From: Corallococcus coralloides
Lineage (GTDB): Bacteria > Myxococcota > Myxococcia > Myxococcales > Myxococcaceae
Reading direction: 5' to 3' (one strand)
DNA: 64,000 nt
Assembly: GCF_004104415.1 (NCBI RefSeq)
Contig: NZ_CP034669.1
The position numbers and the translations under genes are program-made. The notes under the pieces were generated by a model. It saw nothing but the letters and a program-made list of their open reading frames with translations. It had not been told where the DNA came from and did no database searches. Shown one piece after another: positions 427 through 35,619 of the stretch. The first letter of the stretch is position 1. Every line of letters starts with the position of its first letter.

Positions 427-2196
427 TCAGTCCTCGCGGAAGATGCTCATGTTCACGGGGATGCCCTTGCGCTGGAGCTCGTCGTAGAACTTCGGGACGA
501 AGCCCGACGCCACGTAGCGGCCACGCACCTTGTGGTCTTCCGTGAAGCCGTCCTGCTTGTAATAGAAGATGTCCTGCAGGGTCACGATGTCGACCTCCAT
601 GCCGGACACCTCGGTGATGAAGCAGATCTTGCGGGAGCCGTCGGAGAAGCGCGTCTGCTGCACGATGAGGTGCACGGCGCTGGCGATCTGCTCGCGGATG
701 GCCTTCACCGGCAGCTCCATGCCGGACATGAGCACCATCGTCTCCAGCCGGGCAATCGCGTCGCGCGGCGTGTTCGCGTGCAGCGTGGTGAGCGAACCGT
801 CGTGGCCGGTGTTCATGGCCTGGAGCATGTCCAGCGTCTCGCCGGAGCGGCACTCGCCCACCACGATGCGGTCCGGCCTCATGCGCAGGCAGTTCTTCAC
901 CAGCTCGCGGATGGTGATGGCGCCCTTGCCTTCCAGGTTGGGCGGGCGGCTCTCCAGCTGCACCCAGTGGTCCTGCGGCAGCTGGAGCTCCGCCGCGTCC
1001 TCCACCGTGATGATGCGCTCACCCTCCGGGATGAACGAGCTGATGATGTTCAGCGTCGTCGTCTTCCCGGAGCCCGTGCCGCCGGAGATGACGATGTTGC
1101 GCCGGGCCGTCACGCACATCTCCAGGAACTCGGCCATCTGCGCGGTGACCGTCTTGTATTTGATCAGGTCCTGGATCTTCAGCGCGTCCTTCTTGAACTT
1201 GCGGATGGTGATGCAGGGGCCCTTGAGCGCCAGCGGCGGGATGATGGCGTTCACGCGGCTGCCGTCCTTGAGGCGCGCGTCCACCAGCGGGCTGGATTCG
1301 TCGATGCGGCGGCCAATGGGCGCCACGATGCGCTCGATGACGCCGAGCACCGCCTGGTTGGAGGAGAACGTCTTCTCCGACAGGGTCAGCTTGCCCTTGC
1401 GCTCGATGTAGATCTGGTTGGCGTGGTTCACCATGATCTCGCTGATCTCTTCCGACGCGAGGAACGCTTCCAGGGGCCCCAGGCCCAGCGCCTCGTTGAT
1501 GACGTCGGTGAGCAGCTCCTCCCGGTCCACGTCCCCGGGAAGCTCCTGGTCCGCCTCCATCTGGTCGATGATGTCCCGGATGGCCTTCTCGGTGCGGCGC
1601 CAGAGCTCCTCGTCCCCGAGCCGGTCCATGTCCATGCGGCGCAGGTCCAGGTACTCGATGAGCCGGTCGTGGATCTCCTTCTGGAGCCGCGAGTAGCGCT
1701 CCAGCCGGGGGTCCACCTTGCGCTTGTTCTTCGCCATGGCCGCGGCCATGGACGCGGGCATGCGGCTGGGAGCCGCGGGGGCGGGCGCGGGCTCCTCCTC
1801 CTCGTAGGGCTCCTCTTCTTCGTAGGCCTCTTCCTCGTAGGCCTCTTCGCCCTGCTCCTCGTCGTAGGCCTCTTCCGCGGGCTCTTCCTCCAGCGGCTCC
1901 ACGTTGAGGATGTAGTCGCCGATGGAGACCTGGTCGGTGGGCTTGAGCACCATGGGGCCGGCGATCTTCTTGCCGTTCACGAAGGTGCCGTTCGTGGACT
2001 TCATGTCCACGATGATGAAGCGACCGTCCTTTTCGACGATGCGGGAGTGGGTCTTGGAGACGTTCCCCTTGGCGAGCACGATGTCGTTGCCGGCAATCCG
2101 GCCGATCGTGATCTCGTTCTTGGGGTACTCCCGCTGCTCCGAACCGCCACCCTTCTCCGTCAGCGTGATGAGAAACATGGGGTGGGATGCTACCAA
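427..2196 (-). CDS. CpaF/TadA-family secretion ATPase (T2SS/T4P VirB11-like) with N-terminal FHA domain and acidic linker
   Basis: 589 aa ORF. N-term FHA (IGRIAGNDIVLAKGNVSKTHSRIV...STNGTFVNG), acidic EEAYEEE linker, then Walker A GGTGSGKTT and the rest of the CpaF/TadA-type ATPase core. Real start may be Met7 (MFLITL...). Confidence 0.9.
   Translation of the reverse strand: MVASHPMFLITLTEKGGGSEQREYPKNEITIGRIAGNDIVLAKGNVSKTHSRIVEKDGRFIIVDMKSTNGTFVNGKKIAGPMVLKPTDQVSIGDYILNVEPLEEEPAEEAYDEEQGEEAYEEEAYEEEEPYEEEEPAPAPAAPSRMPASMAAAMAKNKRKVDPRLERYSRLQKEIHDRLIEYLDLRRMDMDRLGDEELWRRTEKAIRDIIDQMEADQELPGDVDREELLTDVINEALGLGPLEAFLASEEISEIMVNHANQIYIERKGKLTLSEKTFSSNQAVLGVIERIVAPIGRRIDESSPLVDARLKDGSRVNAIIPPLALKGPCITIRKFKKDALKIQDLIKYKTVTAQMAEFLEMCVTARRNIVISGGTGSGKTTTLNIISSFIPEGERIITVEDAAELQLPQDHWVQLESRPPNLEGKGAITIRELVKNCLRMRPDRIVVGECRSGETLDMLQAMNTGHDGSLTTLHANTPRDAIARLETMVLMSGMELPVKAIREQIASAVHLIVQQTRFSDGSRKICFITEVSGMEVDIVTLQDIFYYKQDGFTEDHKVRGRYVASGFVPKFYDELQRKGIPVNMSIFRED
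1801..1875 (-). repeat. Imperfect tandem 15-nt repeat (ctcgtaggcctcttc x4) encoding the (EEAYE)n acidic linker of the ATPase
   Basis: Seen directly: ctcgtagggctcctc / cgtaggcctcttc / ctcgtaggcctcttc / gtcgtaggcctcttc on plus strand; in frame with the ATPase ORF. Confidence 0.6.
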
Positions 2197-2327: not shown

Positions 2328-3776
2328 TCAGTCGAAGATGTTGAAGTTCACCTCGGAGCGGGCCTGCTTGTAGCGGGTCTTCACGTCCTCGATGATGCTG
2401 CGGACCTTGTCCGAGTCCGGGTTCACGATGCGCGGGGTGACGAAGATCACCAGCTCGCGCTTGGTGGAGTCGAACGCGCGGTTCTTGAACAGCTCGCCCA
2501 CGATGGGGATGTGACCCAGGCCGGGCAGCTTCGCGACGGCCTTCTGCTCGTCGTGGCTGAACACGCCGGACAGCACGATGGTCTCACCGTGGCGCACGGT
2601 GACGTTCGTCTTGACCTTGCGGGTGCGGAAGCCGGGGATGGCGGACGAACCACCGAAGGACACGGACACGGAGGTGTCGATTTCGGAGGCCTCGGCCTCC
2701 ACTTCCGTCTGGATGTTGCCGTTGCGGTCCGCGGTGGGGCGGATGTTCAGGATGACGCCGTAGGGCTTGTACTCCACCGTGAACTGCGTGTTGGTGATGA
2801 GGGGGATGGGCACCTCGCCGCCGGCGAGGAACTCCGCCTTCTCACCGCTGGCGCACACCAGCTTGGGCTGCGCCAGCAGGCGGCCGTAACCGTCGTTGGC
2901 CTGGAAGCCGATGCTCAGGTCGGAGCCGCCCGTCGCGCCCAGCACCAGGTTGGAGATGGCGTCGCCGGAGGGGATGAGCGCCTTGTTCAGCGTCGCGGCG
3001 GCGGTCAGCGTGCCGGTGATGTCCGTGGGGTACTTGATGCCGTAGCGGTCGCGGCTGTTGCGGCGGATTTCGACGAACTGGACCTCGGAGAGGATCATCC
3101 GCTTGATGCCGACGACGAGCAGGTTCTCCACCTTCTCACCGATGGCCTTGGTGATGAGCTCCGCCTTCTGGAGGTCCTGCTGGCTCTCCACGGAGCCCTC
3201 CAGGAAGATGGTCGCGCCCACCACGTTGGCCTGCACGTTCTTCAGGCCCGCCTTCTGGAAGGCCGCGTTCAGGTTCTGGGCGACGAGCTTCTTGGCGTTG
3301 GGGGCGATCTTCACGAACGACTTCACGTTCGGGTACAGGCTCACCACCTGCTCGATGCGGTCCGCGTCCTGCGTGGTGTAGGCCTGACCGTCCAGGTAGA
3401 TGCGGTCGCCCACCATGCGCACGGACACGCCTTCGATTTCCCCCAGCAGGCGCTTGATTTCGGAGATGACCTCGTTGGGGTCCTGCTTGCGGACCGTCAC
3501 CAGGTAGCTGATGCGCTGACCGGAGGACTTCCAGACGAGCAGCGTCGTCTTGCCCTCGGCGTTACCGGTGACGAGCAGCTGGCCGGTGCCGAGCGTCTTC
3601 ACCTCGGCGATGGACGGATCTCCCAGCGCGACGCGGCTGAGGCCGGGAATGGTGAGCACCTTCTGGGTACCCACCCCCAGGCTGACGGAGCTGCCCTCCT
3701 GGGCCAGGGCGGGGGCACTGGCCACCAGGGTGACGAGGGCGCCGAGCGCCAGGGCTTGCGTGAAGCGAGTGGACAT
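2328..3776 (-). CDS. Secretin, CpaC/RcpA (Tad/Flp pilus-type) family outer-membrane channel
   Basis: 482 aa, signal peptide (ALALGALVTLVASAPALAQE), N-terminal BON/secretin-N like region, C-terminal secretin domain (…VPGFRTRKVKTNVTVRHGETIVLSGV…PGLGHIPIVGELFKNR…ELVIFVTPRIV). Confidence 0.9.
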   Translation of the reverse strand: MSTRFTQALALGALVTLVASAPALAQEGSSVSLGVGTQKVLTIPGLSRVALGDPSIAEVKTLGTGQLLVTGNAEGKTTLLVWKSSGQRISYLVTVRKQDPNEVISEIKRLLGEIEGVSVRMVGDRIYLDGQAYTTQDADRIEQVVSLYPNVKSFVKIAPNAKKLVAQNLNAAFQKAGLKNVQANVVGATIFLEGSVESQQDLQKAELITKAIGEKVENLLVVGIKRMILSEVQFVEIRRNSRDRYGIKYPTDITGTLTAAATLNKALIPSGDAISNLVLGATGGSDLSIGFQANDGYGRLLAQPKLVCASGEKAEFLAGGEVPIPLITNTQFTVEYKPYGVILNIRPTADRNGNIQTEVEAEASEIDTSVSVSFGGSSAIPGFRTRKVKTNVTVRHGETIVLSGVFSHDEQKAVAKLPGLGHIPIVGELFKNRAFDSTKRELVIFVTPRIVNPDSDKVRSIIEDVKTRYKQARSEVNFNIFD

Positions 3777-3822: not shown

Positions 3823-4359
3823 CTATCCCAGATGTTGTTGCTGCCACCACATGGCCCAGAAAGTCCCGAGCGCGATGGAGACGCCGTAGGGGATGTGTCG
3901 CGCGGGAGCGGGCGAGGTTTCCTCGCGCATCCATTTCATCCGCACCGCCCAGCGACGGGCCACCGCCGCCAGCGTGTCCCAGACGGCCCCCTGCCACAGC
4001 AGCGTGACGATGGCCTGCAGCGCGCCCGTCAGCGAGATGAAGGCCGCCGCGGCGAGCACCGTGGGAAAGCCCAGCACGCAGCCCACGCCCGCCATCAGCT
4101 TGACGTCACCCCACCCCATGCGCCCGCGCAGCGCACCCGGCACCAGCAGCGCCGCGAGTCCCGCGCCCGCCAGAAGCCCGCTCACCACCCCCGACTCCAG
4201 CCCGCCCACCCCTTCGGACACACCGCGCACCCCGAGCCCCAGCACGATGAGCGGATAGGTCACGGCGTTCGGGATGAGCCGGCGCAGCACGTCGGTCACC
4301 ACCGCAATCACCAGGGCCACTCCCAGAATCGTCCACAGCGCGAGCTGAACAGGTGTCAT
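3823..4359 (-). CDS. Prepilin peptidase, A24 family (CpaA/TadV-like)
   Basis: 178 aa polytopic membrane protein; conserved D…IP motif (VVTDVLRRLIPN) and GxGDVKL motif (MGWGDVKLMAGVG) typical of type IV prepilin peptidases. Confidence 0.85.
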   Translation of the reverse strand: MTPVQLALWTILGVALVIAVVTDVLRRLIPNAVTYPLIVLGLGVRGVSEGVGGLESGVVSGLLAGAGLAALLVPGALRGRMGWGDVKLMAGVGCVLGFPTVLAAAAFISLTGALQAIVTLLWQGAVWDTLAAVARRWAVRMKWMREETSPAPARHIPYGVSIALGTFWAMWWQQQHLG

Positions 4360-4471: not shown

Positions 4472-5329
4472 TCAGTGGATGACGAGGCGGATCTTCTCAC
4501 TGCAGATGAAGTACTCGTCCCCGTCCTCGACCTTGCGGCGCTTGATGCGCTGCTTGTTGAACCAGGTCCCGTTCGAGGAGCCGAGGTCCTCGATGTAGAA
4601 GTCGCCGCCGTCGCGGGCGATGACGGCGTGCTCGCGCGACACCTTGCCGGAGTTGATGACGAAGTCGCAGTGCTTGCCGCGGCCGATGACGTAGCGGTCC
4701 TTGACGATCTTCTCCTGCTCGCCGGACTCCAGGACGAGATAGAGCGAGGCGCCCTCCTCCTCGTCCGGCTCCTCCATCGGCTCTTCTTCTTCGGCCTCCT
4801 CGGGAGGCTCGTCCTGCATGTCGTCGAGCGGCGGCTCCTCCTGCTCCGGCAGGGGCTCCTCCTCGTCCTCGATCATGTCGTCCGCGGAGGGCGGGGGCGG
4901 CTCGTTCTTGCCCTTGATGAGCCGCTCCAGTTCCGCGGCCGTCTCCAGGACGCGCTCGGCGACCTCGCGGCGCACCGGATCATTGTCCAGCCCGTTGGAG
5001 GACGGGCGCTCCTCCGCGTTGCGCGCGGCGGGACGCGCGGCCGGCGCGGGGGCGAGGACTGGAGGACCGCCCTTGGCAGCGGCGGCCGGCGTTGGCGAGG
5101 CGGAGGGACGCGCCGCCGGGGCGGGCGCGGGTGACGGCACCGCCGCCACGGCGGGCTCGCCCTTCGTCTTCACGTCAATGAAGCCGTTGAGACGCGCGAA
5201 CATGAACAGCGCCTGGTTGATGAGCGCGTCGCGATCCGACCCCATCTGCTGGGCCATCTCTTCGTACGTCTCCCACAGGTGCTCGGCGATGCCGACCTTG
5301 CGTGCGGGACGGGAGTTCTGATCGATCAT
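4472..5329 (-). CDS. FHA domain-containing protein (C-terminal FHA, central acidic Pro/Glu-rich disordered region)
   Basis: 285 aa; C-terminal FHA (YVIGRGKHCDFVINSGKVSREHAVIARDGGDFYIEDLGSSNGTWFN); long A/P-rich and E/D-rich low-complexity middle. Confidence 0.8.
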   Translation of the reverse strand: MIDQNSRPARKVGIAEHLWETYEEMAQQMGSDRDALINQALFMFARLNGFIDVKTKGEPAVAAVPSPAPAPAARPSASPTPAAAAKGGPPVLAPAPAARPAARNAEERPSSNGLDNDPVRREVAERVLETAAELERLIKGKNEPPPPSADDMIEDEEEPLPEQEEPPLDDMQDEPPEEAEEEEPMEEPDEEEGASLYLVLESGEQEKIVKDRYVIGRGKHCDFVINSGKVSREHAVIARDGGDFYIEDLGSSNGTWFNKQRIKRRKVEDGDEYFICSEKIRLVIH

Positions 5330-5392: not shown

Positions 5393-7546
5393 TTACTGGA
5401 ACGCCCGGAGATACGTGAGGTTGTCCAGGTTGTCGGTGATGGACTCCAGGGCCACCTGGAGCACGCCGTCCGCTGAAGGATAGGCGACGTAGGCCAGGCT
5501 GGCGCCGTCCACGTCCGTGGCCACCACGGAAGCAGGCAGGGTGTAGACCGCCAGGTTGCTCGACTGACTGGTGTCCACGCCGAAGACGTAGCGGCGGAAG
5601 CGCGGCAGCAGCGTCACCACGTAGCGGTCACCCGCCACCAGCCGGCTCCCCGCCCCGATGGTGGGCGTCAGCGTGAGCGTCAACGGCGCGGGCGCGAAGG
5701 TGGTGGGCGACTTGGGCGGCTCCAGGCCCAGGTCGAAGCCGTCCGGGTGGTAGTAGTAGTCCAGGACGCTGGAGACCGTGTACGCCTCGCCGACGTTGAG
5801 CCGCTGCAGGTACGTGTCGCCGGTCTCCGCGCCGGAATAGAGCACGAAGGGCTTCACGTTCGGGCCCGCGCGCACGGAGAACAACGGGTACGACGCGCAG
5901 GGCTCCGCCGCGTCGGCGACCGCCGGGTCCGACAGGTCCGGGTAGAGCCGCGTGAGGCCATTGCCCTGGTCCTCCAGGCGCAGGATGGGGATGACCGCCG
6001 CGCAGGCACCCGCGTTGTTCGCCAGGATGATGGAGTCGCCGGGAATCACGCCGCGGGCCTCCACCAGGGGCGTCTCGATGAGGAGCGCGGGGTCCTCCTG
6101 GGTCAGGTCGCGAGAGAGTCCGACCAGTCCGGGCAGCACGCCCTGGAAGACGAAGCGGTACGTCCCGCCAGGCACCGAGCCGTTGCAGAGGAACGCCGTG
6201 GCGTTGGTCGTATCCGTCACCTGGGGGCAGCCGGGCTGCTCCACGAGGATGCCCTGGAACTGATCCACGCGCGCCACCTCGTTGTTGTCACGCAGCTCCG
6301 CGGACACCGACGAGTTCAGCGCCTTGTTTTCGGAGTCGCGGTCCAGGTTGAACGCGCGCCGCTCGTCCGCGCGGAACAGGGTGATCCGCCCGTCGGACGA
6401 CGGCATGATGCCCAGGAGCGGAATGGGGGTGAGGTAGGGCACGCTGTCCGCCCGGAGCTCGCGGACCTCCAGGCCCGAGCGCAGCGTGAGGCCCGTGGGC
6501 AGACCCGCGGACGGCCGCAGGGTCAGCATGGGCGCGCCGGTGACGTCGCGGGCGAGCACCGGCGCCGCGGACGGCGCCAGCGGATCCGGCCCATTGTCGA
6601 GCGCGATGACGCCCTCGCAGTCAGACGAGTTGCACGTCAGCTCATCCAGCACCACGAACACGTAGCGGCCCGCGGGCTCGGTCACGGTGTCCGACACCTT
6701 GTAGCTGGGGTGCGTGGTCACGAGCCGCGCCGGGATGTCCACCAGGTCCGCGTAGTTGGGCACCGCGTAGGGCGCCGGCCGCGGCCGCTTGTAGGGGATC
6801 TCCACGGAGGCCCCGTCCGCGACGACGCGCACCAGCCGGCTGGTGCCGGACACGTTGCGGATGGCGACCACCAGCGAGTCCGCCACGCCGGCCCGCGCGG
6901 GCAGCGTGACCATGGACATCACCGTGTCCGCCGGCTTGAGGCAGAAGACGGGCAGCGCGGGAGGGAGCCCGGCGGCGTCGAAGCCCTCCGGGCCGGGCAG
7001 GTCCTGGCGCATCACCACCCCGCCGCCGAAGGGGCCGCAGAGCTGCTCGGCGGCCTCCGGGCGCGTCTGGAGCGCGTAGTACAGGACGCTCGGCTCGCCC
7101 TCCGCCACCGGGGCGTGCGCGGCGAAGGCGGTGATGAGCTGGCCGGTCGCCAGGCGCGTCACCTCGTTGAGGCGCGCGCGGTCCGCGGCCACCACGGAGA
7201 TGCCGCGTCCGCCGGAGCTGCGCGCGTAGATGTACGGGCCGGACACGTCCTCGCCCTTGTCGTTGTAGCCCACGTCGCGGGTGAGCGAGTCGGGCCGCGC
7301 GATGACGGGGATGGCCAACGGCTCCAGCGGGTTCGGCGCGGGGATGAACTCACGCGGCGCGCGCGTCAGGTCCAGCACGCGCAGCTCATCCCGGTCCTGC
7401 GAGGTGACGAAGACGAGCTGGTTGGAGAGCACCACGTCGTACGTGCCGGACAGACCGGCGGCGCCCGCGGTGCTGGTGGTGTCGGAGCAGGCGAGCGCGA
7501 GGCTCGCGCCGCTCAGCAACAGGGCAGCAAGAAAGCCGCGCTTCAA
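5393..7546 (-). CDS. Large lipoprotein of unknown function (about 717 aa)
   Basis: Track ORF 5393..7564 (GTG). A TTG at 7544-7546 gives a textbook lipoprotein signal, MKRGFLAALLLSGASLALAC, and sits 4 nt after the upstream gene stop (tgaccttgaag). No recognisable catalytic motifs; no homology call possible by eye. Confidence 0.6.
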   Translation of the reverse strand: MKRGFLAALLLSGASLALACSDTTSTAGAAGLSGTYDVVLSNQLVFVTSQDRDELRVLDLTRAPREFIPAPNPLEPLAIPVIARPDSLTRDVGYNDKGEDVSGPYIYARSSGGRGISVVAADRARLNEVTRLATGQLITAFAAHAPVAEGEPSVLYYALQTRPEAAEQLCGPFGGGVVMRQDLPGPEGFDAAGLPPALPVFCLKPADTVMSMVTLPARAGVADSLVVAIRNVSGTSRLVRVVADGASVEIPYKRPRPAPYAVPNYADLVDIPARLVTTHPSYKVSDTVTEPAGRYVFVVLDELTCNSSDCEGVIALDNGPDPLAPSAAPVLARDVTGAPMLTLRPSAGLPTGLTLRSGLEVRELRADSVPYLTPIPLLGIMPSSDGRITLFRADERRAFNLDRDSENKALNSSVSAELRDNNEVARVDQFQGILVEQPGCPQVTDTTNATAFLCNGSVPGGTYRFVFQGVLPGLVGLSRDLTQEDPALLIETPLVEARGVIPGDSIILANNAGACAAVIPILRLEDQGNGLTRLYPDLSDPAVADAAEPCASYPLFSVRAGPNVKPFVLYSGAETGDTYLQRLNVGEAYTVSSVLDYYYHPDGFDLGLEPPKSPTTFAPAPLTLTLTPTIGAGSRLVAGDRYVVTLLPRFRRYVFGVDTSQSSNLAVYTLPASVVATDVDGASLAYVAYPSADGVLQVALESITDNLDNLTYLRAFQ

Positions 7547-7548
7547 GG

Positions 7549-9078
7549 TCAGTTCTCCTGGCACACGCTGGTGCCCTGGTTCGGATCGCGCTGCTGCTGG
7601 ATGCCCAGCTTCGCCACCAGCCGCGCGTCCTGGGGACGCGCCAGGTCGGGGAGGTCCACGATGGCCACCTGGCTGTCACCGAAGTTGGTCACGAACAGCC
7701 GCGCCGCGTTCGTCCCGGCGGGGTTGTCCACCGTCAGCCCGAAGGCCTGCGACGGGTTGCTGGTCTGGTTGAGTTCGTTGACGAGCGGCACCTGCGCCAC
7801 GACCTGCCCGAGCGCCTCGTCGTAGAGGGACAACGCGCTGTCGCCGGTGCTCGTCACCGCGATGATGTGGGTGTCCGCGTTGGACGTGCCCGGCGTCCGC
7901 GAGAGGATCTGCATGTCGCTCACGCCGTCGGGCATGGGCACCGCGGAGACCACGCGGAAGAAGGGCTGGGTGGCGGGGGTGCCCGGCACCGCGTCGTATT
8001 CGAAGTCCAGGGTGAGCAGCGTGTCCGGGCCGCGCGCCAGCAGGTACAGCCGCTCGCGCACGAGGTTCGGACGCGCCGCCAGCTCCTCCGCCGTCACCGG
8101 ACGGGGCACCACGCGCGCCGCGCGCGCCTCGCGGATGCGGTACTCCGACTGCAGCGAGGGCTCGAGGATGGTGCCGGGGTCGTTCTTGTCCACCAGCCGC
8201 AGCACGAAGTTGCCGCCCACGGTGCCGTTGATGCCGGCCACGAAGTTGCGGCCCGTCACGTAGAGGTAGCCCGCGCCCACCGTCACCGAATCCGAGCCGC
8301 CGTAGAGGTAGCCCTCGGGTGACAGCGAGATGAAGCCCAGCGTGTCGCGCGTGGGGTTGTCCAGCTTCACCGTGGCCAGGTAGTTCTCGAAGTTGCTGCT
8401 GGACTTCGCGGGCGAGTCCGCCGCCTCCGAGTGCGTCACGTACAGGTTGCCGCTCGCCTCATCCACCGTCACGCCGATGGGCGACGGAGCGCGGGGCAGG
8501 CCCGCGCGGCCCTCGTCACTGAGGGACGACGGGATGTCGTCGGAGAGAGACAGCGCGCCGTCGCGGCAGTCCACGCCGCCCTGCACGCAGGTGAGCACCG
8601 GGGCGCCATTGGCCTCCAGGCTCACGTCCACCGCGTTCAGGTTGTTGCCCTCCGCGCGCGAGGGCACGAACAGGCGCGGCAGCCCCGTGGCGGGGTTCAC
8701 CCACATGCCCAGCTCACCCGCGAAGCTGCGGATCTGCACGAGCGACTCGTCCGCGGACGCCAGGTCCTCGAAGGCGAGCGCGGAGTCCGGGAGCACGCTG
8801 CCCAGGTGGGGCACCATGACAGCCTGCCCATCCACCTGCGTGCTCAGCGTGTCCAGGTTCAGCGCCACGACCGAGCCGGAGTCGTAGCAGTTGTCGAAGT
8901 TGGCGTTCGCAACGAAGAGATAGCCGTTGCTCACGGATGGCCCGCCCGCCGCCGGAGGGCGCCAGAACGCCACCCCGCTGGGGTACACGAAGCGGGTGGA
9001 CGGAGGCGGGTTCGGATCGGATTCAATCGAACACGCCCCGAGGAGCAGCAGCGCGGGGGTCAGGAAGTAGAGGCGCAT
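7549..9078 (-). CDS. Lipoprotein of unknown function (about 509 aa)
   Basis: Track ORF 7549..9309 has a junk Arg/Pro-rich N-extension. ATG at 9076-9078 (checked) gives MRLYFLTPALLLLGACSIESD (lipobox LLGAC). No recognisable catalytic motifs; no homology call possible by eye. Confidence 0.6.
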   Translation of the reverse strand: MRLYFLTPALLLLGACSIESDPNPPPSTRFVYPSGVAFWRPPAAGGPSVSNGYLFVANANFDNCYDSGSVVALNLDTLSTQVDGQAVMVPHLGSVLPDSALAFEDLASADESLVQIRSFAGELGMWVNPATGLPRLFVPSRAEGNNLNAVDVSLEANGAPVLTCVQGGVDCRDGALSLSDDIPSSLSDEGRAGLPRAPSPIGVTVDEASGNLYVTHSEAADSPAKSSSNFENYLATVKLDNPTRDTLGFISLSPEGYLYGGSDSVTVGAGYLYVTGRNFVAGINGTVGGNFVLRLVDKNDPGTILEPSLQSEYRIREARAARVVPRPVTAEELAARPNLVRERLYLLARGPDTLLTLDFEYDAVPGTPATQPFFRVVSAVPMPDGVSDMQILSRTPGTSNADTHIIAVTSTGDSALSLYDEALGQVVAQVPLVNELNQTSNPSQAFGLTVDNPAGTNAARLFVTNFGDSQVAIVDLPDLARPQDARLVAKLGIQQQRDPNQGTSVCQEN

Positions 9079-9244
9079 CAGAGGGGGGCGGAGTGTAGGA
9101 ACGCGGCCCTGCCCCGGGCAACTGAATAGGGCTGCCACTATTCCCGGCCGCCCGCCCGCCGACATCCGCCCCCATCCATAGGGCGTGCGCCGCTCCCCTG
9201 GAGGGGGAACGGGCACGCTCCGGCGGTGAAGCGGCGGCCGGGCA

Positions 9245-11353
9245 TCAGGCCGCGGCGAGTTCGGCCTGGATCTTGGAAAAGTCCGCCACCTGGTTGAACA
9301 GGGCGCCAATCTCCGTGAGGAACCGGATGCGGTTCTCCCGCAGGTCCTTGTCCTCGGCCATCACCATCACCTTGTCGAAGAAGGTGTCCACGGCGGGCTT
9401 CAGGCCGGTGATCTCCTTGAGCGCGCCGGCGAAGTCGTCCGCGCGCACATGCTCACCCACCTTGTCGCGCGCCTGGGTGAAGGCGGTGTGGAGGTTCTTC
9501 TCCGGCTCGTCGGTGAAGCGCTGCGGGTTGGTCTGCCCGCCCGCCACGTCCTTGCCCTGCTTCTCCACGATGTTGACCACGCGCTTGAACGCCGCCGCCA
9601 GCGGCTGGAAGTCCGAGTGGCCCACCAGCAGGCTCAGGGCCTCCAGGCGCTTCTTCGCGGCCACCAGGTCGTCGAAGCCCACGGCCAGCACCGCCTCCAC
9701 GACGTCCGTGCGGTGCTGCTCGCCCCACAGCGCCTTGAGGCGGCCGCGGAAGAACTCCAGCACCTGCTCGCGCGGGGCCGCTTCACCCGGCTTGCGCTTC
9801 ACGTTGGCCAGCTTGGGGGCCAGCAGGCGCAGCGCCTCATCCACCGCGGCGGACAGGCTGAAGCGGTAGCCGCGCCCCAGCACGATGCGGATGATGGACA
9901 GGCACGCGCGGCGCAGCGCGAACGGATCCGCCGCGCCGGACGGCGCCTTGCCAATGGCGAAGATGCCGCACAGCGAGTCCAGCCGGTCCGCCAGGCCGAT
10001 GAGCGCGCCCGCGTCCTGGGACGGCAGCGCGTCCTCGGCGCCGCGGGGCAGGTAGTGCTCGAAGATGGCCAGCGCCACCGCGTCGGGCTCGCCGCCCGCT
10101 CTCGCGTACTCGCGGCCCATCACGCCCTGGAGCTCCGGGAACTCGCCCACCATGCCGGTGACCAGGTCCGCCTTGGACAGCGTGGCGGCGCGCTCCACCG
10201 TGGCCGCCTCCCCTGCCCTGTCCGTGGCCTGGGCCAGCCAGCCCGCCAGCGCGCGGAAGCGCTCCACCTTCTCCAGGTACGTGCCCAGCTGGCCCTGCCA
10301 CACCACGCGGCCCAGCTTCTCCACGCGGTCCGCCAGCGGCGTGCGGCGGTCCTCGTCGAAGAAGAAGCGCCCGTCCGCGAGCCGCGCCGCCAGCACGCGC
10401 TGGTAGCCGCGCAGGGACAGCTGCTCGTCGCGCACCGGCGTGTTGGACACGGCGATGAAGCGCGGCAGCAGCTTCCCCTTCGCGTCCGTCAGCGAGAAGT
10501 AGCGCTGGTGGCTCTTCATCTCCTGCACCAGGACTTCCGGGGGCAGGTCCAGGTGGCGCTCCTCGAAGCTGCCCACCACGGGGCTCGGCAGCTCCACCAG
10601 GTTCGTCACTTGGTCCACCAGGCCCTCGTCCTCCAGCAGCCGAGCGCCCGCCGAAGTGGCCGCGGCGTTCACCTTGCGCAGCAGCTCCGCGCGGCGCTTC
10701 GCGATGTCCGGCACCACGTGCGCCTTCTCCAGCGCGGCCTCGTAGTCCGAGGGCGCCTTCAGCGCGATGGCGCCCGGCGCGAGGAAGCGGTGGCCGTAGG
10801 TCGTGCGGCCCGCCTTCACGTCGCCCAGCACCACCGGCAGCTCCGTGTCGCCCAGGAGCGCCACCAGCCACTGCACCGGGCGCGCGAAGGCCGTGTCCAC
10901 GTCACCCCAGCGCATGGACTTCTTGAAGTTGATGCCGTGCACGGCCGCGTGCACCGCGTCCTGGAGGATGGCCTCCGCCGGACGGCCCTTCTCCTCCACG
11001 CGCGCGGAGACGTACTCGCCCTTGGCCGTGGTGGTGCGCCCGAGCGCGTCCACGGACAGCTTGAGGCTTTCGGCGAACTTCTCCGCCGCCTTGGTGGGCT
11101 TGCCCTGCGCGTCGAAGGCGGCCTTGGCGCTGGGGCCCAGCACCTCCTTCGTGATGTCCTCGCCCGCGTCCGCCACGCCGCGGACCAGGACGGCCAGCCG
11201 GCGCGGCGTGCCGAACGTGCGCACCTCGCCGTGCTTCAGGCGGGCGTCGGCCATGCGCTCGGTGAGCACGCGCTTCAGGTCCTCCAGCGCGGGGATGATG
11301 AACGACGCCGGGAGTTCCTCGGCACCGACCTCCAGCAGCAGATCACGCGCCAC
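9245..11353 (-). CDS. glyS: Glycine--tRNA ligase beta subunit
   Basis: 702 aa; [18 protein letters not shown]… characteristic GlyS N-terminus and length; overlaps glyQ stop by 11 nt as usual. Confidence 0.93.
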
Positions 11354-12335
11354 GAGCCACCTCCGCCTTCTCCTTCTTCTCCACCGGCTTGTTGAGCTGC
11401 ACCGTCTTCCAGTAGTCGCTGGCGGGCTTGCCCTCCAGCACCGGCGGCTGCTCGCCCACGGTCCACGGCGTCTTCGTCAGCGGGTAGCCCAGCCGCTCGC
11501 GCATCTGGAGGTAGCCTTCCGCGCACAGGCGCGCGTTGTCACGCACGCGCTTGATGAAGTTGGCGCGCTCGGTGACGGAGATGGCGCCGCGCGCGTCCAG
11601 CAGGTTGAACGTGTGCGAGCACTTCAGCGCGTAGTCGTACGCGGGCATCGGCAGGTGGCGCTCGATGAGCCGCTTGCACTCCTTCTCGTACGCGTCGAAC
11701 ATCGAGAAGAGCATCTGCGGGTCGGACTCGTGGAGGGCGTACTTGCTCATCTCCACTTCGTTCGCGTGGAAGATTTCACGGTACTTCACGCCCTTGACCC
11801 ACTCGATGTCGTAGACGTTCTCCACGTTCTGCAGGTTCATCATCAGGCGCTCGAGCCCGTACGTCAGCTCCGCGGACACGGGGCGGCAGTCGAAGCCGCC
11901 GCACTGCTGGAAGTAGGTGAACTGCGTCACCTCCATCCCGTCGCACCACACCTCCCAGCCCAGGCCCCAGGCGCCCAGCGTGGGGGATTCCCAGTCGTCC
12001 TCGACGAAGCGGATGTCGTGCTCCAGCGGATCCATGCCCACCTTCCGCAGCGACTCCAGGTACAGCTCCTGGACGTTCTTGGGCGCGGGCTTGAGGATGA
12101 CCTGGAACTGGTGGTGCTGGAACAGGCGGTTCGGGTTCTCACCGAAGCGGCCGTCGGCGGGCCGCCGCGAGGGCTGCACATACGCGACGTTCCAGGGCTC
12201 GGGACCGAGCGCGCGCAGGAACGTGTAGGGGGCCATCGTGCCCGCGCCGACTTCCGTGTCGTACGACTGGGTGACGATGCATCCCTGGTCGGCCCAGTGC
12301 TTCTGGAGCGTGAGGATGAGGTCCTGGAAATACAT
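11343..12335 (-). CDS. glyQ: Glycine--tRNA ligase alpha subunit
   Basis: 330 aa; [19 protein letters not shown]…[23 protein letters not shown] highly conserved GlyQ sequence. Confidence 0.95.
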
Positions 12336-12424: not shown

Positions 12425-14698
12425 TCAGTTCGAGTAGGCCGGGAGGTCGGCCAGTCGAATCTGCAGCTTCGTCACTTCGCCGGGACGGATGGGAGCGGAC
12501 AACAGCTTGCTCGTACCGCCGGGGTCCTGCGGGTCCACCACGCGCAAGCGGTACGTCCCGATGGGCAGGGGGAACTTGATCAACGGGGACGTGCCCAGCT
12601 GCGTGGCGCCGTCGAACACCGCCGCGTTCTTCGGCACGGTGTAGAGCGTCAGCCACCCCAGGCCCGCCTTCGCCGCGCCCTTCGAGGTGGTCGTGTCGAG
12701 CACCTCCGGGTTCTCCACCTGGGTGACGGTGGTGACGGGCTCCGGCGGCCGCTCCGAGGGCTCGGGCTTCGCGGGGCGCGGTTCCACCTTCGCCACCGCG
12801 GGCGCGTCCGGCGTGGCGGCCGGTTTCGTCTTGCGGCCTCCCTTGCCGGCGGGGGCCTTCTTCGTGTCCGCGGCGGTCGCTGCCACCACCGGCTCGGGCG
12901 TGGGCGGCGCCTCCACCGGCGCCGGCTCGGGCTCGGGCTCGGGGGTCGTCTTCTGGACGAAGCCCGGCGGAGGACCGGAGGGCTTCGGCGGCCACTGCCC
13001 GTTCGCGGCGGGGTCCACGGGCGGAGCCGGATCCAGCTCCGCCTTCACCCACTGCTTCGCGGAGTCGAACGCCGGCATGAACACGCGGCGCACGGGTTCG
13101 AGCGTCGCCATGTAGGCCACGCCGCCCAGGATGAGGAGCAGGAACAACCGCATGCCCCAGCCGGAGCCCTCGCGAGCGGGCGGGGCCACGGGGGGCGCTT
13201 CAACGGACTCCGCTTCCTCCACCTGGCGTGAGGGCCGCGAGGCGCCGCGCACCGGACGGGCCTTGAAGCGCTGGGTCTGGAGCTCGCTGGGCGGATCCAT
13301 CAGCCCGTCGGACTCGGCCGCGTCGCGGGCCTCGGTGGGCTCGGGCCGCGCGCTGGGACGGGCCCGCGAGGGCCGCACGGCGTCAGCGGGAGGACGGATG
13401 ACCCGGGGAACGGGCGTCCCGTCAGGCCCCGAGGGCCGCTGCGCGCGCGGCGTCACGGCGGGCGTGTTGAGGCGAGAGGCGCGGGCCTCCACGGCTTCAT
13501 TGGCGGGGCGCGGGGTGGCGCGGGGCGCGGGCGCCGTGGACTCGGCCGCGGTGCGACGGACGGGCGTGGGCTTGAAGGACGCCGCGACGTCCGCGGGCGG
13601 GGCCTCCGCGTGCGGCGACTTCACCTGCGCGGTGGCGGCGGAGGCGGCCTGCTCACTGCCCTCCTCCACCTGGAGCGCACCGGCGGCTTCGCTGACGCGG
13701 GCGTCCTCGGCGCGGCTGGCCAGCTCCAGGAGCGTGCGCGTCTTCTGGCGCTTCTCCTCGAAGAGCTCGCCCATGACGGCGGTCATCTGGTCTTCGTCGA
13801 ACAGCTCGGAGCCCAGCGTGGCCTCGATGGCGCGCGCCATCTCCCGGCAGGTCCCGAAGCGCTGGGTGGCATCGCGCGACAGCGCCTTGAGCACCACCGC
13901 TTCCAGGGCCTCCGGCACGGCCGCGTTGAGCGAGCGCGGCGCGGGGATGTCCCCGTCCACGATCTGCATCATCACGGCGGCTTCGCCGGGGGCGTTGAAC
14001 AGGCGCTGTCCCGCCAGCAGCTCGTGGAGCATCACGCCCGTGGAGAACTGGTCGCTGCGGCCATCCAGGTCCTTGTTGCGCACCTGCTCCGGGGACATGT
14101 ACCCGCTGGTCCCCTTCACGGTGCCCACCTGCGTGCGGCCCAGCTTGCCGCGCGCCTTGGCGATGCCGAAGTCGATCACCTTCACGACGCCGTCGTAGGT
14201 GAGCATCACGTTCTTCGGGGACACGTCGCGGTGCACCACCGCCACCGGGCGGCCCGACGGATCCATGAAGTGGTGGGCGTAGTGCAGGCCCAGGCACGTG
14301 TCGCGAATCACGCGCGCGCTGAAGCCCAGCGGCAGCGCGTACTTGCGCCGCTCCGCCATCTTCACCACCTGCTCCAGGTTCTGGCCGGGCAGGAACTCCA
14401 TGGCGAGGTACAGCTCGCCGTCCTCCTCACCCAGGTCGAACACCTGTCCGATGTTCGCGTGCGAGAAGGCCGCGGTGATGCGCGCCTCATCCAGGAACAT
14501 CTTGACGAACTGGTCGTCCTTCTTGATGTCGGGGAGGATCTGCTTCACCGCCACGAACTTGCGGAAGCCACCGGGGCCGGAGGTGTACGCGAGGAACAGC
14601 TCCGCCATCCCGCCCATCGAGAGTCGGGTGAGGATCTCGTACTTTCCAATGCGCCGCCCCCGGTCGGGATCGTCTCCGGCGACTCCCTGCGTGCTCAT
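12425..14698 (-). CDS. Ser/Thr protein kinase with TM segment and C-terminal PEGA domain
   Basis: Hanks kinase motifs (VAVK, HRDVSPKNVML, DFGIAK, GTSGYMSPEQ). Pro-rich linker, TM LFLLLILGGVAYMATL, C-terminal PEGA-like beta domain (LGWLTLYTVPKNAAVFDG…YRLRVV). Track ORF extends to 14935; ATG at 14696-14698 (MSTQGVAGDD…) is the likely real start. Confidence 0.9.
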   Translation of the reverse strand: MSTQGVAGDDPDRGRRIGKYEILTRLSMGGMAELFLAYTSGPGGFRKFVAVKQILPDIKKDDQFVKMFLDEARITAAFSHANIGQVFDLGEEDGELYLAMEFLPGQNLEQVVKMAERRKYALPLGFSARVIRDTCLGLHYAHHFMDPSGRPVAVVHRDVSPKNVMLTYDGVVKVIDFGIAKARGKLGRTQVGTVKGTSGYMSPEQVRNKDLDGRSDQFSTGVMLHELLAGQRLFNAPGEAAVMMQIVDGDIPAPRSLNAAVPEALEAVVLKALSRDATQRFGTCREMARAIEATLGSELFDEDQMTAVMGELFEEKRQKTRTLLELASRAEDARVSEAAGALQVEEGSEQAASAATAQVKSPHAEAPPADVAASFKPTPVRRTAAESTAPAPRATPRPANEAVEARASRLNTPAVTPRAQRPSGPDGTPVPRVIRPPADAVRPSRARPSARPEPTEARDAAESDGLMDPPSELQTQRFKARPVRGASRPSRQVEEAESVEAPPVAPPAREGSGWGMRLFLLLILGGVAYMATLEPVRRVFMPAFDSAKQWVKAELDPAPPVDPAANGQWPPKPSGPPPGFVQKTTPEPEPEPAPVEAPPTPEPVVAATAADTKKAPAGKGGRKTKPAATPDAPAVAKVEPRPAKPEPSERPPEPVTTVTQVENPEVLDTTTSKGAAKAGLGWLTLYTVPKNAAVFDGATQLGTSPLIKFPLPIGTYRLRVVDPQDPGGTSKLLSAPIRPGEVTKLQIRLADLPAYSN

Positions 14699-14790
14699 GC
14701 GGGGGCGGATGTTACCCGCCGAACCCTCCCAGGTCGATGACCGTCTTTCCAGACGGTCCCTCCCGGCCTCCGGAGTCCGGTGAAAGCGGG

Positions 14791-15579
14791 TTAGGCGCCG
14801 AACCGCCGCCGCCGCACGTCGAGCATCCAGGCCTCGAGCGCGGCCACGGCCGCCGGTGGTGGCTCCAGAGGCAACACGGAGGCCGCGTCCGCCGCGTCGA
14901 GCACCGCGAAGGCGCGCGTCACCTCCCGCTGCCACGCTTCGCTGAGCGCGTCGGTCAGCTCGATGCGCTCACCGCTCCGCTTGCGCTCCACCAGCGTGCG
15001 GGCTTCGCCAAAGCCATACGGCTCCAGCAGGACGGTGACGTCCGTCTCCACCTCGCCCGTGCGCAGCGCATGCGTCCCGGTGAGCGTGGTGCGCAGCACG
15101 TACAGCAACTTCTTCACGGAGCGGAATCCGCTCTTCTCCCACTCGCGCAACTGCCCCTGCGCGAAGCCGCGGTAGTGCCGGTGGATGCGCCGCGACAGCA
15201 CGGCCCGCACCAGCGGCCGCAGCGCCTCCAGCTCCGGCAGGGCCCGCACGGTGATGGCCCCCAGCACCCGCTCGATGTAGTTGCCGTTGCCCTGGAGGAT
15301 GCCCAGCAGCACGGGCTGCAGCTCGTTGGACGAGTAGTCCACCTCCACGCCCTCCAGCACCTCCAGCCGCTCCGCCGGCACGTGCCGGGGCTGGAGGCCA
15401 AGCAGCGCGGCGGTGTGCGCGATGTGGATGGCCTTGAGGTCCAGGTCGCTGTCATGCGACGGGAAACCGTACGCATGCGCGCCGGACAGCGAGATGACCA
15501 GGTGCTCGCGCTGGAGGGACTCCGCGTCCAGCACGCGGTCCGCCATGTGCTCCTGATGCTCCGTCACCCTGCCCTTCAT
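14791..15579 (-). CDS. Pol-beta superfamily nucleotidyltransferase, RlaP/YcgL-like
   Basis: 262 aa; N-terminal GS/GA…hDhDh NTase motif (LSGAHAYGFPSHDSDLDLKAIH); size and motif fit PF10127-type minimal NTases. Start ATG overlaps upstream stop (ATGA). Confidence 0.6.
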   Translation of the reverse strand: MKGRVTEHQEHMADRVLDAESLQREHLVISLSGAHAYGFPSHDSDLDLKAIHIAHTAALLGLQPRHVPAERLEVLEGVEVDYSSNELQPVLLGILQGNGNYIERVLGAITVRALPELEALRPLVRAVLSRRIHRHYRGFAQGQLREWEKSGFRSVKKLLYVLRTTLTGTHALRTGEVETDVTVLLEPYGFGEARTLVERKRSGERIELTDALSEAWQREVTRAFAVLDAADAASVLPLEPPPAAVAALEAWMLDVRRRRFGA

Positions 15580-23109: not shown

Positions 23110-27321
<4,212 letters not shown>

Positions 27322-27453
27322 GTTGCCTCCGAAAACTTATGAGCGCTCAGGGCGCCAAACGTTTCGGGCCCCCGCCCTGCGCCCGGCCAGCCGCTCCCTC
27401 CACGAGGAAGCAGCCAGCCGGTCAGGCGGGCGCACCGGCTTCTTTGAAAAGGC

Positions 27454-31680
<4,227 letters not shown>

Positions 31681-31769
31681 TCGGTCTCCGGGGACGGCTG
31701 CTCGGGCGGGGCAAACTTCAGTAACGCGCGGCGGCGCCGGGAAATTTGGCAAATGTCAAATGGGCAAAG

Positions 31770-31797
31770 CCGGCGCCCCAGCAAAGGGAGCGCCGGC
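31770..31797 (-). promoter_or_regulatory. Putative rplL-rpoB intergenic attenuator hairpin
   Basis: Imperfect 10-bp GC-rich inverted repeat (ccggcgcccc…ggagcgccgg) in the 180-nt rplL-rpoB spacer, followed on the transcript by a partly T-rich stretch; by analogy with the E. coli rplL-rpoB attenuator. Confidence 0.3.
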
Positions 31798-31861
31798 CTG
31801 CTCATCCGATCAGGCGGCTACCCGGGATTTCCCGGAAGAACAGGGTAGCCCCTGTACAGAA

Positions 31862-32233
31862 CTACTTGATCTCGACGGTGGCGCCAGCCGCGACGAGCTG
31901 GTCCTTGATCTTCTTGGCGTCGTCCTTGTTGACGCCTTCCTTGACCGTCTTGGGCGCGCCCTCGACCAGGTCCTTGGCCTCCTTCAGGCCCAGGCCGGTG
32001 ATCGCGCGGATCTCCTTGATGACGTTGATCTTGTTGGCGCCGGCGTTCGCCAGCACCACGTTGAACTCCGTCTTCTCCTCGACAGGAGCGGCGGCGGCGG
32101 CGGGGCCCGCGGCGGCAACGGCCACGGCGGCGGCGGAAACGCCCCACTTGTTCTCCAGCAGCTTCACGAGCTCGCCCGCCTCGAGGACGGTGAGCTTCGA
32201 GAGTTCTTCAGCAATCGCGTTCAAATCGGCCAT
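31862..32233 (-). CDS. rplL: 50S ribosomal protein L7/L12
   Basis: 123 aa; [27 protein letters not shown]…. Confidence 0.97.
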
Positions 32234-32322
32234 GGAACTGTTCCTTCTGGTTGACTAACGGCCGGCGACCCATTTAGGCGGCTCGGCCGAAGAGGTTGCG
32301 GTAGAAAAACTTCTCGGGACGA

Positions 32323-32844
32323 TTACTGACCCTGCGCCTTGTCCGCGTGCGCCTGGATGACGCGCGCGAGCTGCGACCCGGGGGCCGCGATGGTCCGGAC
32401 CAGCTTGCCTGCAGGCTGGTTGAGCATGCCGAGCAACATCCCGCGCAGCTCATTGAGGCCCGGCAGCTTCGCCAGTGCCTTCACGCCGTTGGCGTCGACC
32501 TTGTTACCGGCGACGACGGCGCTACGGACCTTGATGGTCTCCATGTCCTTGATGAAATCCATCAGGATCTTCGCAGGAGCCACCTCGTCGTCGTAGCTGA
32601 TGCACAGCGCCACGGGACCGGTGAAGTCATCCGAGATCGCGGAGACGGTCGTACCCTGAGCGGCACGGCGCGCCAGCGTGTTCTTGATGACCTTGTACTC
32701 GACCTTGCCCTCGCGGAACTTGCGACGCAGCTTGGTAACGGTCTCGACGTTCACCTTGGAGGACTCCACGAGCACCGCGGTCTTGGTCCGGGTGAACTTC
32801 TCGTGAAGCTCCTTGATCATTTCTTCCTTCTCGCTCTTCAGCAC
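32323..32844 (-). CDS. rplJ: 50S ribosomal protein L10
   Basis: 173 aa, conserved L10 sequence. Confidence 0.95.
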   Translation of the reverse strand: MLKSEKEEMIKELHEKFTRTKTAVLVESSKVNVETVTKLRRKFREGKVEYKVIKNTLARRAAQGTTVSAISDDFTGPVALCISYDDEVAPAKILMDFIKDMETIKVRSAVVAGNKVDANGVKALAKLPGLNELRGMLLGMLNQPAGKLVRTIAAPGSQLARVIQAHADKAQGQ

Positions 32845-33240
32845 CTTGACTCACCTCCTTCATGGCCCGACCTGACAGTCGGGCGTGATGCCTGGGCCAA
32901 AGTGGCAGAGCGAGAGAGGAGCCTCCGAGAGGCACCACACCGCACCTCCAGTCTCGGCAGGGCTGACCTTGCGGTCGTTTGAACCAGGAGCGGATGGACG
33001 GCCCGACCGGTTGCCCGGTTCCCAACGGACGCGTCTTCTCCCATCCAGGTCCCTGCTGTCATGAACCAGGTCGGAACGCCGCGTCTCACGACATGGCGCC
33101 CCAATTGCAAAAGCCGGGGGCCTATACCCCCGGCTTTCGCAAAGATCCAGCACTTTCTAACGGACCGACGTTCGCGGGCGACGGGACTGACGCTCCCCGT
33201 CAGGGAGCGCACCCTTCCCGGCCCGTCCTGACAGCCGCGA
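32845..33240 (-). promoter_or_regulatory. rplJ leader region (expected L10 autoregulatory leader plus internal promoter)
   Basis: Unusually long (about 396 nt) rplA-rplJ spacer in an otherwise tightly packed operon; the L10(L12)4-binding leader lies here in other bacteria. Structure not verified by eye. Confidence 0.35.
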
Positions 33241-33954
33241 TTAGCGGTGACGCGCCAGGATTTCCGTGGTGTCGAGCTTGATGCCCGGCCCCATGGTCGT
33301 CGAGATGGCGATGCCCTGCAGGTACACGCCCTTGGCGGTGGCCGGCTTGAGCTTCATCACCAGGTCCACCAGCGCGTTGAAGTTCGCCTCGAGCTTGTCC
33401 GCAGGGAAGGAGGCCTTGCCCATCTTCGCGTGGACGATGCCCGCCTTCTCAGCGCGGAAGTCGACCTTACCGCCCTTGGAGTCGCGGATGGCCTTGGCGA
33501 CGTCCATGGTCACCGTGCCGACCTTCGGGTTCGGCATGAGGCCACGGGGACCGAGCACCTTACCGAGGCGGCCGACGATACCCATCATGTCCGGCGTCGC
33601 GATGACGGTGTCGAAGTCGAGGAAGCCCTCCTCGATGCGCTTCTGGAGGTCCTCGGCGCCGACGATGTCCGCGCCGGCGTTGGCGGCCTCGGTGGCGCGC
33701 TCGCCCTTGGCGAACACGGCCACGCGCACGGTGGCGCCGGTGCCGTGCGGGAGCACCACGGCGCCACGGACCATCTGGTCCGCGTGCTTCGGGTCCACGC
33801 CCAGGTTGATGGCGACGTCGACCGTCTGGTCGTACTTCGTCGCGCGGGCATCCACCGTCTTCTTCAGCAGCGCGAAGCCCTCGGCGACGGCGTAGCGCTT
33901 GTTGCGGTCCACCAGCTCGTTGGACGCGCGGAACTTCTTTCCATTGGTAGCCAT
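33241..33954 (-). CDS. rplA: 50S ribosomal protein L1
   Basis: Track ORF begins at an upstream TTG; ATG at 33952-33954 (checked) gives [23 protein letters not shown]… conserved L1. Confidence 0.95.
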
Positions 33955-33982
33955 GGCAGGAATCCTTGAGAGGTAGGGCGGG

Positions 33983-34429
33983 CTAGCCGACGACGTCGAT
34001 GCCCATGGAGCGCGCGGTGCCGGCAATGGTGTTCATGCAGGCTTCGAGGGACGCGGCGGTGGTGTCCTGGATCTTCTTGTTGGCGATCTCCTCGAGCTGC
34101 TTACGGGTGATCTGCCCCACCTTCTCCTTGCCCGGCTTCTTCGCGCCCGAACCCTTCTTCTTCTCCGTGTGGAGACCCGCGGCCTTCTTGATGAGGATCG
34201 CGGCGGGAGGGGTCTTCAGGATGAAGGTGAAGGAGCGGTCCTGATACACGGTGATGATCACCGGGATGATCAGCCCCTCCTTGGCCTCCGCCTGCGTCTT
34301 GGCGTTGAACTGCTTGCAGAACTCCATGATGTTCACGCCCTGCTGACCGAGCGCGGGACCAATCGGCGGGGCGGGGTTCGCCTTGCCGGCGGGGATCTGC
34401 AACTTGACCTGACCTGTGACCTTCTTCAT
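33983..34429 (-). CDS. rplK: 50S ribosomal protein L11
   Basis: 148 aa; …[31 protein letters not shown]. Confidence 0.97.
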
Positions 34430-34536
34430 CGGCGGACTGCTGCCTTTCGAGAGGGTGGTTCCGACGGGCCGCCAGACGGGGCGGCCCTCCCACCCGTTGA
34501 TCCGCGCCCGTCACCGGGCGCGGAAGAGCTGTGAAA

Positions 34537-35528: not shown

Positions 35529-35619
35529 GGTGCCTCACGAGGGACTGCGGAAGCGGGACTGCGAAAAGGCAGGGACCCCCGGCACCGCTCGGTACCGGGG
35601 GTCCCTGTACTGAAGCTGG

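Follow-up and report, generated by a model that had tools for sequence, protein, structure and literature searches.

A coupled pair of predicted outer-membrane propeller lipoproteins between glyQ-glyS and the kil genes of Corallococcus coralloides

Described secretin partners and propeller lipoproteins

In Myxococcus xanthus, cluster 1 of the genes for the Kil/Tad-like machine contains "two predicted OM lipoproteins" (OM, outer membrane), MXAN_3102 with a cd1-type propeller and MXAN_3103 with a YWTD propeller, both of unknown function, and co-expression of the cluster genes under starvation was reported (Seef et al., 2021; PMC8460266). The genes deleted in that study were the recognisable Tad components and kilD only (PMC8460266); none of the papers that we found reports a deletion, mutant or fusion of MXAN_3102 or MXAN_3103, and the supplements of Herrou (2025) hold no entries for them. 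A recent preprint based on transcriptome and synteny data (DiscOperon, 2026) predicts that glyQ, glyS, RS15035 and RS15040 (MXAN_RS15035 being MXAN_3102 and RS15040 being MXAN_3103) form one M. xanthus operon, with the FHA gene monocistronic and kilA-C-F-D-polA a separate operon, which conflicts with the cluster co-expression of Seef et al. (2021). Here, we analyse the orthologous pair, termed gene A and gene B, in a stretch of 64,000 nt from Corallococcus coralloides (contig NZ_CP034669.1; hereafter the window), where the two genes occupy positions 5393-9078. A is 46% and B 41-42% identical to the respective M. xanthus protein, and the window is the orthologue of kil cluster 1 (MXAN_3102-3108), with the same order glyQ-glyS-A-B-FHA-kilA-kilC-kilF. 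An earlier reading of the window, made from its letters alone (the sequence-only reading), had called the pair the novel part of the system; in fact both genes are already on record, as MXAN_3102/3103 orthologues and thus as predicted OM lipoproteins without an assigned function (PMC8460266). New here are the model-based fold assignment, the deep conservation of the coupling, the family size and the loci lacking kil genes. We postulate, with a probability of roughly 0.6, that A and B are the OM propeller pair of a glyQ-glyS-linked (glyQS-linked) module and not an obligatory component of the Kil machine.

Several described lipoproteins can be compared with the products of A and B, for which our models predict beta-propellers. 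TadD, a protein of ~27 kDa with five tetratricopeptide repeats (TPR) and a PilF-like fold, binds the C-terminus of the secretin (PMC10499894). Like A and B, TadD and the PilF/Tgl pilotins are OM lipoproteins encoded near a secretin gene; however, they are TPR proteins of ~25-30 kDa, whereas A and B (509 and 717 aa) would be beta-propellers of 52-75 kDa, which are also found without a neighbouring secretin gene. As modelled, A and B are not pilotins of the TadD/PilF type. BamB is an OM-anchored beta-propeller lipoprotein serving as a non-catalytic scaffold, and A and B may work likewise, although BamB is built of PQQ-type repeats arranged in eight blades, while A and B have no PQQ-family Pfam match, are predicted to be seven-bladed, and are both fast-evolving and taxonomically restricted. 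The seven-bladed fold is shared with Escherichia coli YncE (PDB 3vgz), for which binding of single-stranded DNA has been reported, and with the Leptospira lipoprotein antigen Lp49 (3bws), at 7-16% identity and with no relation at the level of hidden Markov models (HMMs). Unlike these proteins, A and B are a coupled pair; A is ~190 aa longer than YncE (~300 of its 509 aa aligned), B ~400 aa longer, and neither belongs to the YncE sequence family. By analogy with BamB and Lp49, we consider that A and B would function most like propeller lipoproteins without catalytic activity.

The coupled genes and their predicted propellers

Gene A begins with an ATG at 9078 and ends with a TGA at 7551..7549; its product starts MRLYFLTPALLLLGAC (Cys16), carries the lipobox LLGAC and ends ...SVCQEN, which confirms the length of about 509 aa, the lipobox and the CQEN-TGA end given by the sequence-only reading. 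Its account of the start of gene B was also largely right. The longest open reading frame (ORF) of B begins with a GTG at 7564 and overlaps A by 16 nt, as described, and the TTG preferred to it (7546..7544; stop codon 5395..5393; product starting MKRGFLAALLLSGASLALAC, Cys20) is well supported as the start by comparison with related sequences, but the TTG follows the TGA of A after a gap of 2 nt, not 4 nt. In the family alignment of 85 sequences, K2, R3 and C20 of B are nearly invariant, and the N-termini of the B homologues all read [M/V/L]KR...C, where an initial V points to a GTG start and an initial L to a TTG start. Among 62 related loci, the equivalent codon is GTG in 36, TTG in 22 and ATG in 4. 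A start/stop overlap of 4 nt (xTGA) joins A and B in 49 of these 62 loci; M. xanthus has such an overlap (GTGA), while the Corallococcus clade (9/62) has the 2-nt gap together with the TTG. Moreover, a GGAG-type Shine-Dalgarno sequence lies within the last codons of A in 71 of 75 loci. Given this sequence and the conserved junction, the translational coupling is ancient and conserved, so that the pair stands as the coupled lipoprotein pair first proposed, with lipoboxes and A/B junction kept across the family. The G+C content at third codon positions (GC3) of the A and B ORFs (0.91-0.92) is similar to that of their neighbours and the pairwise ratios of nonsynonymous to synonymous substitution rates (dN/dS) are below 1; hence, A and B are real, selected genes.

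The description of both proteins as Gly/Asp/Asn-rich is weakly true (glycine ~8%, aspartate ~7%, asparagine 3-6%), clearer traits being a very low lysine content (~1%) and high serine, threonine and proline. Both contain cysteines, as had been noted: four in A and eight in B besides those of the lipoboxes, mostly conserved, and the conserved cysteine pairs are consistent with an oxidising environment outside the cytoplasm. Pfam and NCBIfam searches gave no match for either protein at E<=0.1, which fits the earlier remark that no catalytic motif could be recognised, and sequence and profile searches of the PDB gave nothing below E 0.1. The AlphaFold2 models, computed on the family alignments, are all-beta, in line with the beta-type character assumed before (predicted local distance difference test, pLDDT, 90 and predicted template modelling score, pTM, 0.90 for A; 87.5 and 0.84 for B), and predict a seven-bladed beta-propeller in each protein. 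Their best structural matches are seven-bladed proteins of 7-16% identity. A Foldseek search of the PDB with B returned generic propeller matches and poor multi-propeller matches, and no assignment for the extra domain. The possibility that A and B are paralogues was also considered and set aside, since hhalign of one family against the other matched only the signal peptide and the first blade (probability 41%) and paralogy was not demonstrable.

Given such folds, A and/or B might have no relation to secretion and be propeller-class enzymes of the periplasm or cell surface, for example lactonases or lyases. We regard this as very improbable: the structural matches are generic seven-bladed proteins (7-13% identity), in which enzymes are interleaved with non-enzymatic WD40 proteins, no enzyme-family HMM matched, the conserved positions follow the repeated blade motifs and do not form one catalytic cluster, and the high dN/dS (see below) would be unusual for an enzyme.

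As to the location of the proteins, the lipobox cysteine of A is kept in nearly all full-length homologues, and the +2 residue of the A and B lipoboxes is Ser, Thr or Asp across the homologues (Ser in both window proteins) and never Lys, the residue that marks inner-membrane retention of lipoproteins in M. xanthus (PMC3222651). Furthermore, MXAN_3103, the orthologue of B, was detected by liquid chromatography-tandem mass spectrometry in the M. xanthus OM fraction (PMC3222651). We infer that both A and B are lipidated on the conserved cysteine and sorted to the OM, the direct evidence being that for the B orthologue. This part of the proposal of the sequence-only reading, which saw in them OM or periplasmic partners of the secretin or prey-contact components, is thus upheld for an OM lipoprotein; the partnership with the secretin and the role in prey contact are not supported, in view of the linkage to glyQS and the four kil-less lineages described below. 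OM propeller lipoproteins, one of them found in the OM fraction, which lie between glyQS and polA and are kept in every sampled lineage, could also be a general envelope-biogenesis factor, similar to the propeller lipoprotein BamB or to TolB, and such a role would explain their co-transcription with housekeeping genes. This seems to us a poor candidate explanation, since there is no PQQ/BamB or TolB match in Pfam, the best structural matches have seven blades and the BamB propeller eight, a core biogenesis factor would be expected to evolve far more slowly than A and B, and the family is confined to one clade of Myxococcota.

Linkage to glyQ-glyS and to the kil block

A pattern scan of species-representative genomes yielded 71 loci with a B relative, all in genomes or metagenome-assembled genomes (MAGs) of Myxococcaceae or Archangiaceae, to which 12 metagenome loci with enough sequence were added. 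The array glyQ-glyS-A-B-FHA was found in every locus with enough sequence of both sets. In these loci glyS (homologues with PF02092/PF05746) is always directly upstream of A, the FHA gene always follows B, and the glyQ counterparts, in the loci that hold the gene, are 71-99% identical by tblastn and match PF02091. Most of the 71 loci continue with kilA-kilC-kilF-kilD-polA, and therefore linkage to glyQS cannot be told apart from linkage to kil within this set. The family proved much larger when the B profile was used for an exhaustive HMM search, comprising 425 clusters at 50% identity, of which 209 had E<=1e-30.

A and B are adjacent to kilA, kilC and kilF in the window and in about 50 loci, but they are not confined to kil-bearing loci. 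Four distinct lineages have glyQ-glyS-A-B-FHA-polA without kilA, kilC, kilF or kilD at the locus, namely L065 (from the genome scan), L073 (a MAG contig of 2.6 Mb), L074/L075 and L081/L082 (NCBI MAG GCA_022615785.1), while other distant members sampled (L076, L077, L079, L080 and L083) are kil-positive. In the kil-less loci, A and B are intact and have their lipoboxes, and the spacer between the FHA gene and polA is ~30-130 nt long with no gene remnants. A homology search with one kil-less B homologue (P0320) returned only the self-match. In a midpoint-rooted neighbour-joining (NJ) tree of GlyQ and GlyS, L065 and L073 form the deepest branch and L074 is nested among kil-positive lineages; hence, at least one lineage lost the kil block at this locus and kept A-B-FHA. 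These results suggest that kilA-kilC-kilF-kilD is a presence/absence cassette placed exactly between the FHA gene and polA, although its original insertion is not read from the NJ tree.

Two further observations concern these loci. The B homologues of L074 (10001-12505) and L081 (6077-8506) are 834 and 809 aa long, ~100 aa longer than elsewhere. The L074 sequence (75.5% G+C) was considered as Anaeromyxobacter-like, a genus that has no Kil-specific genes in the matrix of Herrou (2025); this assignment was not confirmed and was dropped as evidence.

In crown Myxococcaceae, glyS and A are separated by 105-193 nt. The spacer is shorter in the deep lineages, measuring -4 to 8 nt in nine loci (L058, L060, L062, L067, L069, L070, L072, L073 and L080) and 38-73 nt in most of the remaining ones. 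Since glyS and A abut or overlap in these deep lineages, A-B are placed in the glyQS operon there. A promoter and terminator scan of the glyS-A spacer detected no sigma-70-like promoter or intrinsic terminator, the results being empty or at background level. In one genome, Corallococcus sp. RDP092CA (L012), a 1.5-kb insertion (6947-8469) separates glyS and A, which are ~167 nt apart in relatives.

The evolutionary rates also set A and B apart from the conserved Kil proteins. Relative to GlyQ/GlyS, the mean Kimura distance is 3.8x for A and 5.2x for B, compared with 1.6x for the FHA protein, 0.8x for KilC and 0.65x for KilF; the rates of A and B exceed those of KilC and KilF by a factor of 4-8. 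Within Corallococcus, dN/dS is 0.32-0.52 for A and 0.41-0.72 for B, versus 0.05-0.23 for glyQ, 0.08-0.21 for KilC and 0.08-0.25 for KilF. Conservation in B is highest in residues 30-165 and variation greatest in the C-terminal half: in sliding windows, identity in the C-terminal half is 0.17-0.41 versus 0.44-0.63 in residues 30-135 across the family, and 0.54-0.82 versus 0.83-0.96 within Corallococcus. Judged from the sequences, such fast evolution would fit an exposed, ligand-facing envelope protein, and not a tight structural partner of a very conserved secretin. A mirror-tree analysis gave partial correlations of 0.40 for A-B, 0.26 for A-KilC and -0.06 for B-KilC, together with 0.49 for B and the cytoplasmic KilF; the last value indicates that lineage rate effects dominate, and hence no specific signal between A/B and KilC can be read from it.

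Given these data, how far might A and B serve the Kil machine as accessory OM components, i.e., as a KilC pilotin, scaffold, dock or surface module for prey recognition? Their place just upstream of FHA-kilA-kilC-kilF is kept in about 50 loci of Myxococcaceae and Archangiaceae, they share a compartment with KilC, a dN/dS of up to 0.7 and the hypervariable C-terminal half of B would suit a surface or recognition role, and Seef et al. (2021) have their orthologues in the co-expressed cluster 1. Moreover, pilotin folds differ between systems (PMC10499894). We nevertheless hold an accessory role in the Kil machine to be a minority possibility, though the most serious alternative, since four lineages keep A-B at a locus that has no kilA/C/F/D, deep lineages show a tight coupling of A to glyS, the DiscOperon prediction sets the pair apart from kil, the fold differs from the TPR fold of TadD, PilF and Tgl, and the (uninformative) mirror-tree values give no specific co-evolution with KilC. 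The literature on the kil genes points in the same direction. The genes that were deleted and designated as Kil components did not include A and B, and the TPR protein MXAN_4639 is tabulated as a Caulobacter-related candidate (Seef et al., 2021; PMC8460266). The sequence-only reading had regarded absence from other kil-like loci as evidence against its proposal, and this absence was found in part: Supplementary Table 2 of Seef et al. (2021) lists no A or B homologue in the Bdellovibrio or Bradymonas kil loci; Table 1 of that paper gives a proteome-BLAST match for MXAN_3102 in Bradymonas (PMC8460266).

A more specific version, which we find rather doubtful, is that A-B form a fast-evolving, surface-exposed heterodimer acting as the OM docking or prey-recognition partner of the Kil secretin/pilus in Kil-positive myxobacteria, with the hypervariable C-terminal half of B as contact surface and the conserved N-terminal propeller facing the machine; in that case, kil genes would have moved elsewhere in the kil-less lineages, or the pair would have a second, ancestral role there.

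Several points weigh against placing A and B in a glyQS-linked module. In about 50 loci, the window included, A-B-FHA and the downstream kilA-kilC-kilF-kilD are direct neighbours on one strand, separated by short gaps, and therefore read-through transcription and a functional link are possible. The kil-less calls refer to the locus itself and come from MAGs and metagenomes, and the Kil genes of M. xanthus are themselves split over several loci. The lineage tree is an NJ tree of two proteins with midpoint rooting. Pilotin architecture varies between systems (PMC10499894), so a propeller pilotin is possible on fold grounds. Finally, we infer the A-B complex, its orientation (towards the periplasm or the cell surface) and any ligand.

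On balance, we favour the glyQS-linked module, in which A-B would share a transcription unit with glyQ-glyS and form its distal part, the gene of the small FHA protein coming next. Each protein would be made with a Sec/lipoprotein signal peptide, lipidated on its conserved cysteine and sorted to the OM; owing to the coupling, the two would be co-produced, probably at 1:1, and may assemble on the OM into a heteromeric module that binds or acts as a scaffold without catalytic activity, to which B would add a rapidly diverging all-beta C-terminal half. The array glyQ-glyS-A-B-FHA would be ancestral to a large clade of Myxococcales and survive without the kilA-kilC-kilF-kilD block, which would make A-B a lineage-specific envelope module. 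The link of A-B to the Kil/Tad-like apparatus is then most likely positional, or at most accessory, and it is unlikely that they are an obligatory structural component, a pilotin or an effector of the Kil machine.

Gene array of the window and meaning of the pair

The window has a G+C content of ~70%, and its proteins share 94-98% identity with those of Corallococcus. The array lies on the minus strand in the order glyQ, glyS, gene A, gene B, FHA-domain gene, kilA, kilC, kilF (Table 1).

Table 1. Coordinates of the glyQ-to-kilF array and of elements within genes A and B (window positions).
Feature	Coordinates	Strand	Remarks
glyQ (glycyl-tRNA synthetase alpha)	11343..12335	-	330-aa ORF; first of the array
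glyS (glycyl-tRNA synthetase beta)	9245..11353	-	702-aa ORF; 11-nt overlap with the glyQ end
glyS-A spacer	9079..9244	-	166 nt
Gene A	7549..9078	-	509-aa predicted lipoprotein; MXAN_3102 orthologue; predicted seven-bladed YncE-like beta-propeller with insertions
A signal peptide and lipobox	9031..9078	-	Residues 1-16; Cys16 predicted lipidation residue; +2 Ser
AGGAG Shine-Dalgarno for B	7555..7559	-	Inside the A codons Gln-Glu
Gene B	5393..7546	-	717-aa predicted lipoprotein from TTG 7546; MXAN_3103 orthologue; predicted seven-bladed beta-propeller plus additional all-beta region(s)
B signal peptide and lipobox	7487..7546	-	Residues 1-20; Cys20; +2 Ser
Fast-evolving C-terminal half of B	5396..6349	-	Residues ~400-717
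FHA-domain gene	4472..5329	-	MXAN_3104 orthologue; PF00498 and PF16697 at residues 201-273
kilA (prepilin peptidase)	3823..4359	-	Pfam/NCBIfam matches
kilC (secretin)	2328..3776	-	Pfam/NCBIfam matches
kilF (FHA-CpaF ATPase)	427..2196	-	Pfam/NCBIfam matches

Besides its FHA domain, the FHA protein has an N-terminal region of ~50 residues that resembles a ribbon-helix-helix (RHH) fold (best PDB match CopG, residues 12-44, at a weak E of 0.18), followed by an acidic, proline-rich linker; judging from these features, it may be a phospho-dependent DNA-binding regulator. Directly upstream of glyQ, on the same strand, lies a gene for an 836-aa Ser/Thr protein kinase (12425-14935, -; Pkinase, E 7.5e-35), and a Pkinase gene is also found upstream of glyQ in L079. 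The kinase could be relevant to the many downstream FHA-domain proteins. Farther away, the window holds a housekeeping block (23110-37164, -) with rpoC (23113-27321), rpoB (27457-31752) and tuf (35977-37164), all Pfam-confirmed, and hence the part of the chromosome that holds the Kil cluster-1 region is core and highly syntenic. The stretch 53573-58614 (+) encodes a 1225-aa SpoIID-domain protein of lower GC3 (0.82) and, after it, a protein with a TonB-C domain; a SpoIID-TonB pair is also found in L073, immediately before glyQ, and this suggests that such neighbourhoods recur in rearranged form.

For the question of how the Kil/Tad-like machine recognises prey and is anchored in the OM, it is of note that kil cluster 1 lists no OM lipoproteins other than MXAN_3102/3103. 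The comparative data favour a place of A and B in an older, glyQS-linked module, which bears directly on the disagreement between Seef et al. (2021) and the 2026 operon preprint. If this reading is wrong, the missing OM partner of the Kil machine is best sought in A and B. If it is right, models of the Kil machine should drop A and B, and what remains is a clade-wide pair of propeller lipoproteins without a family model.

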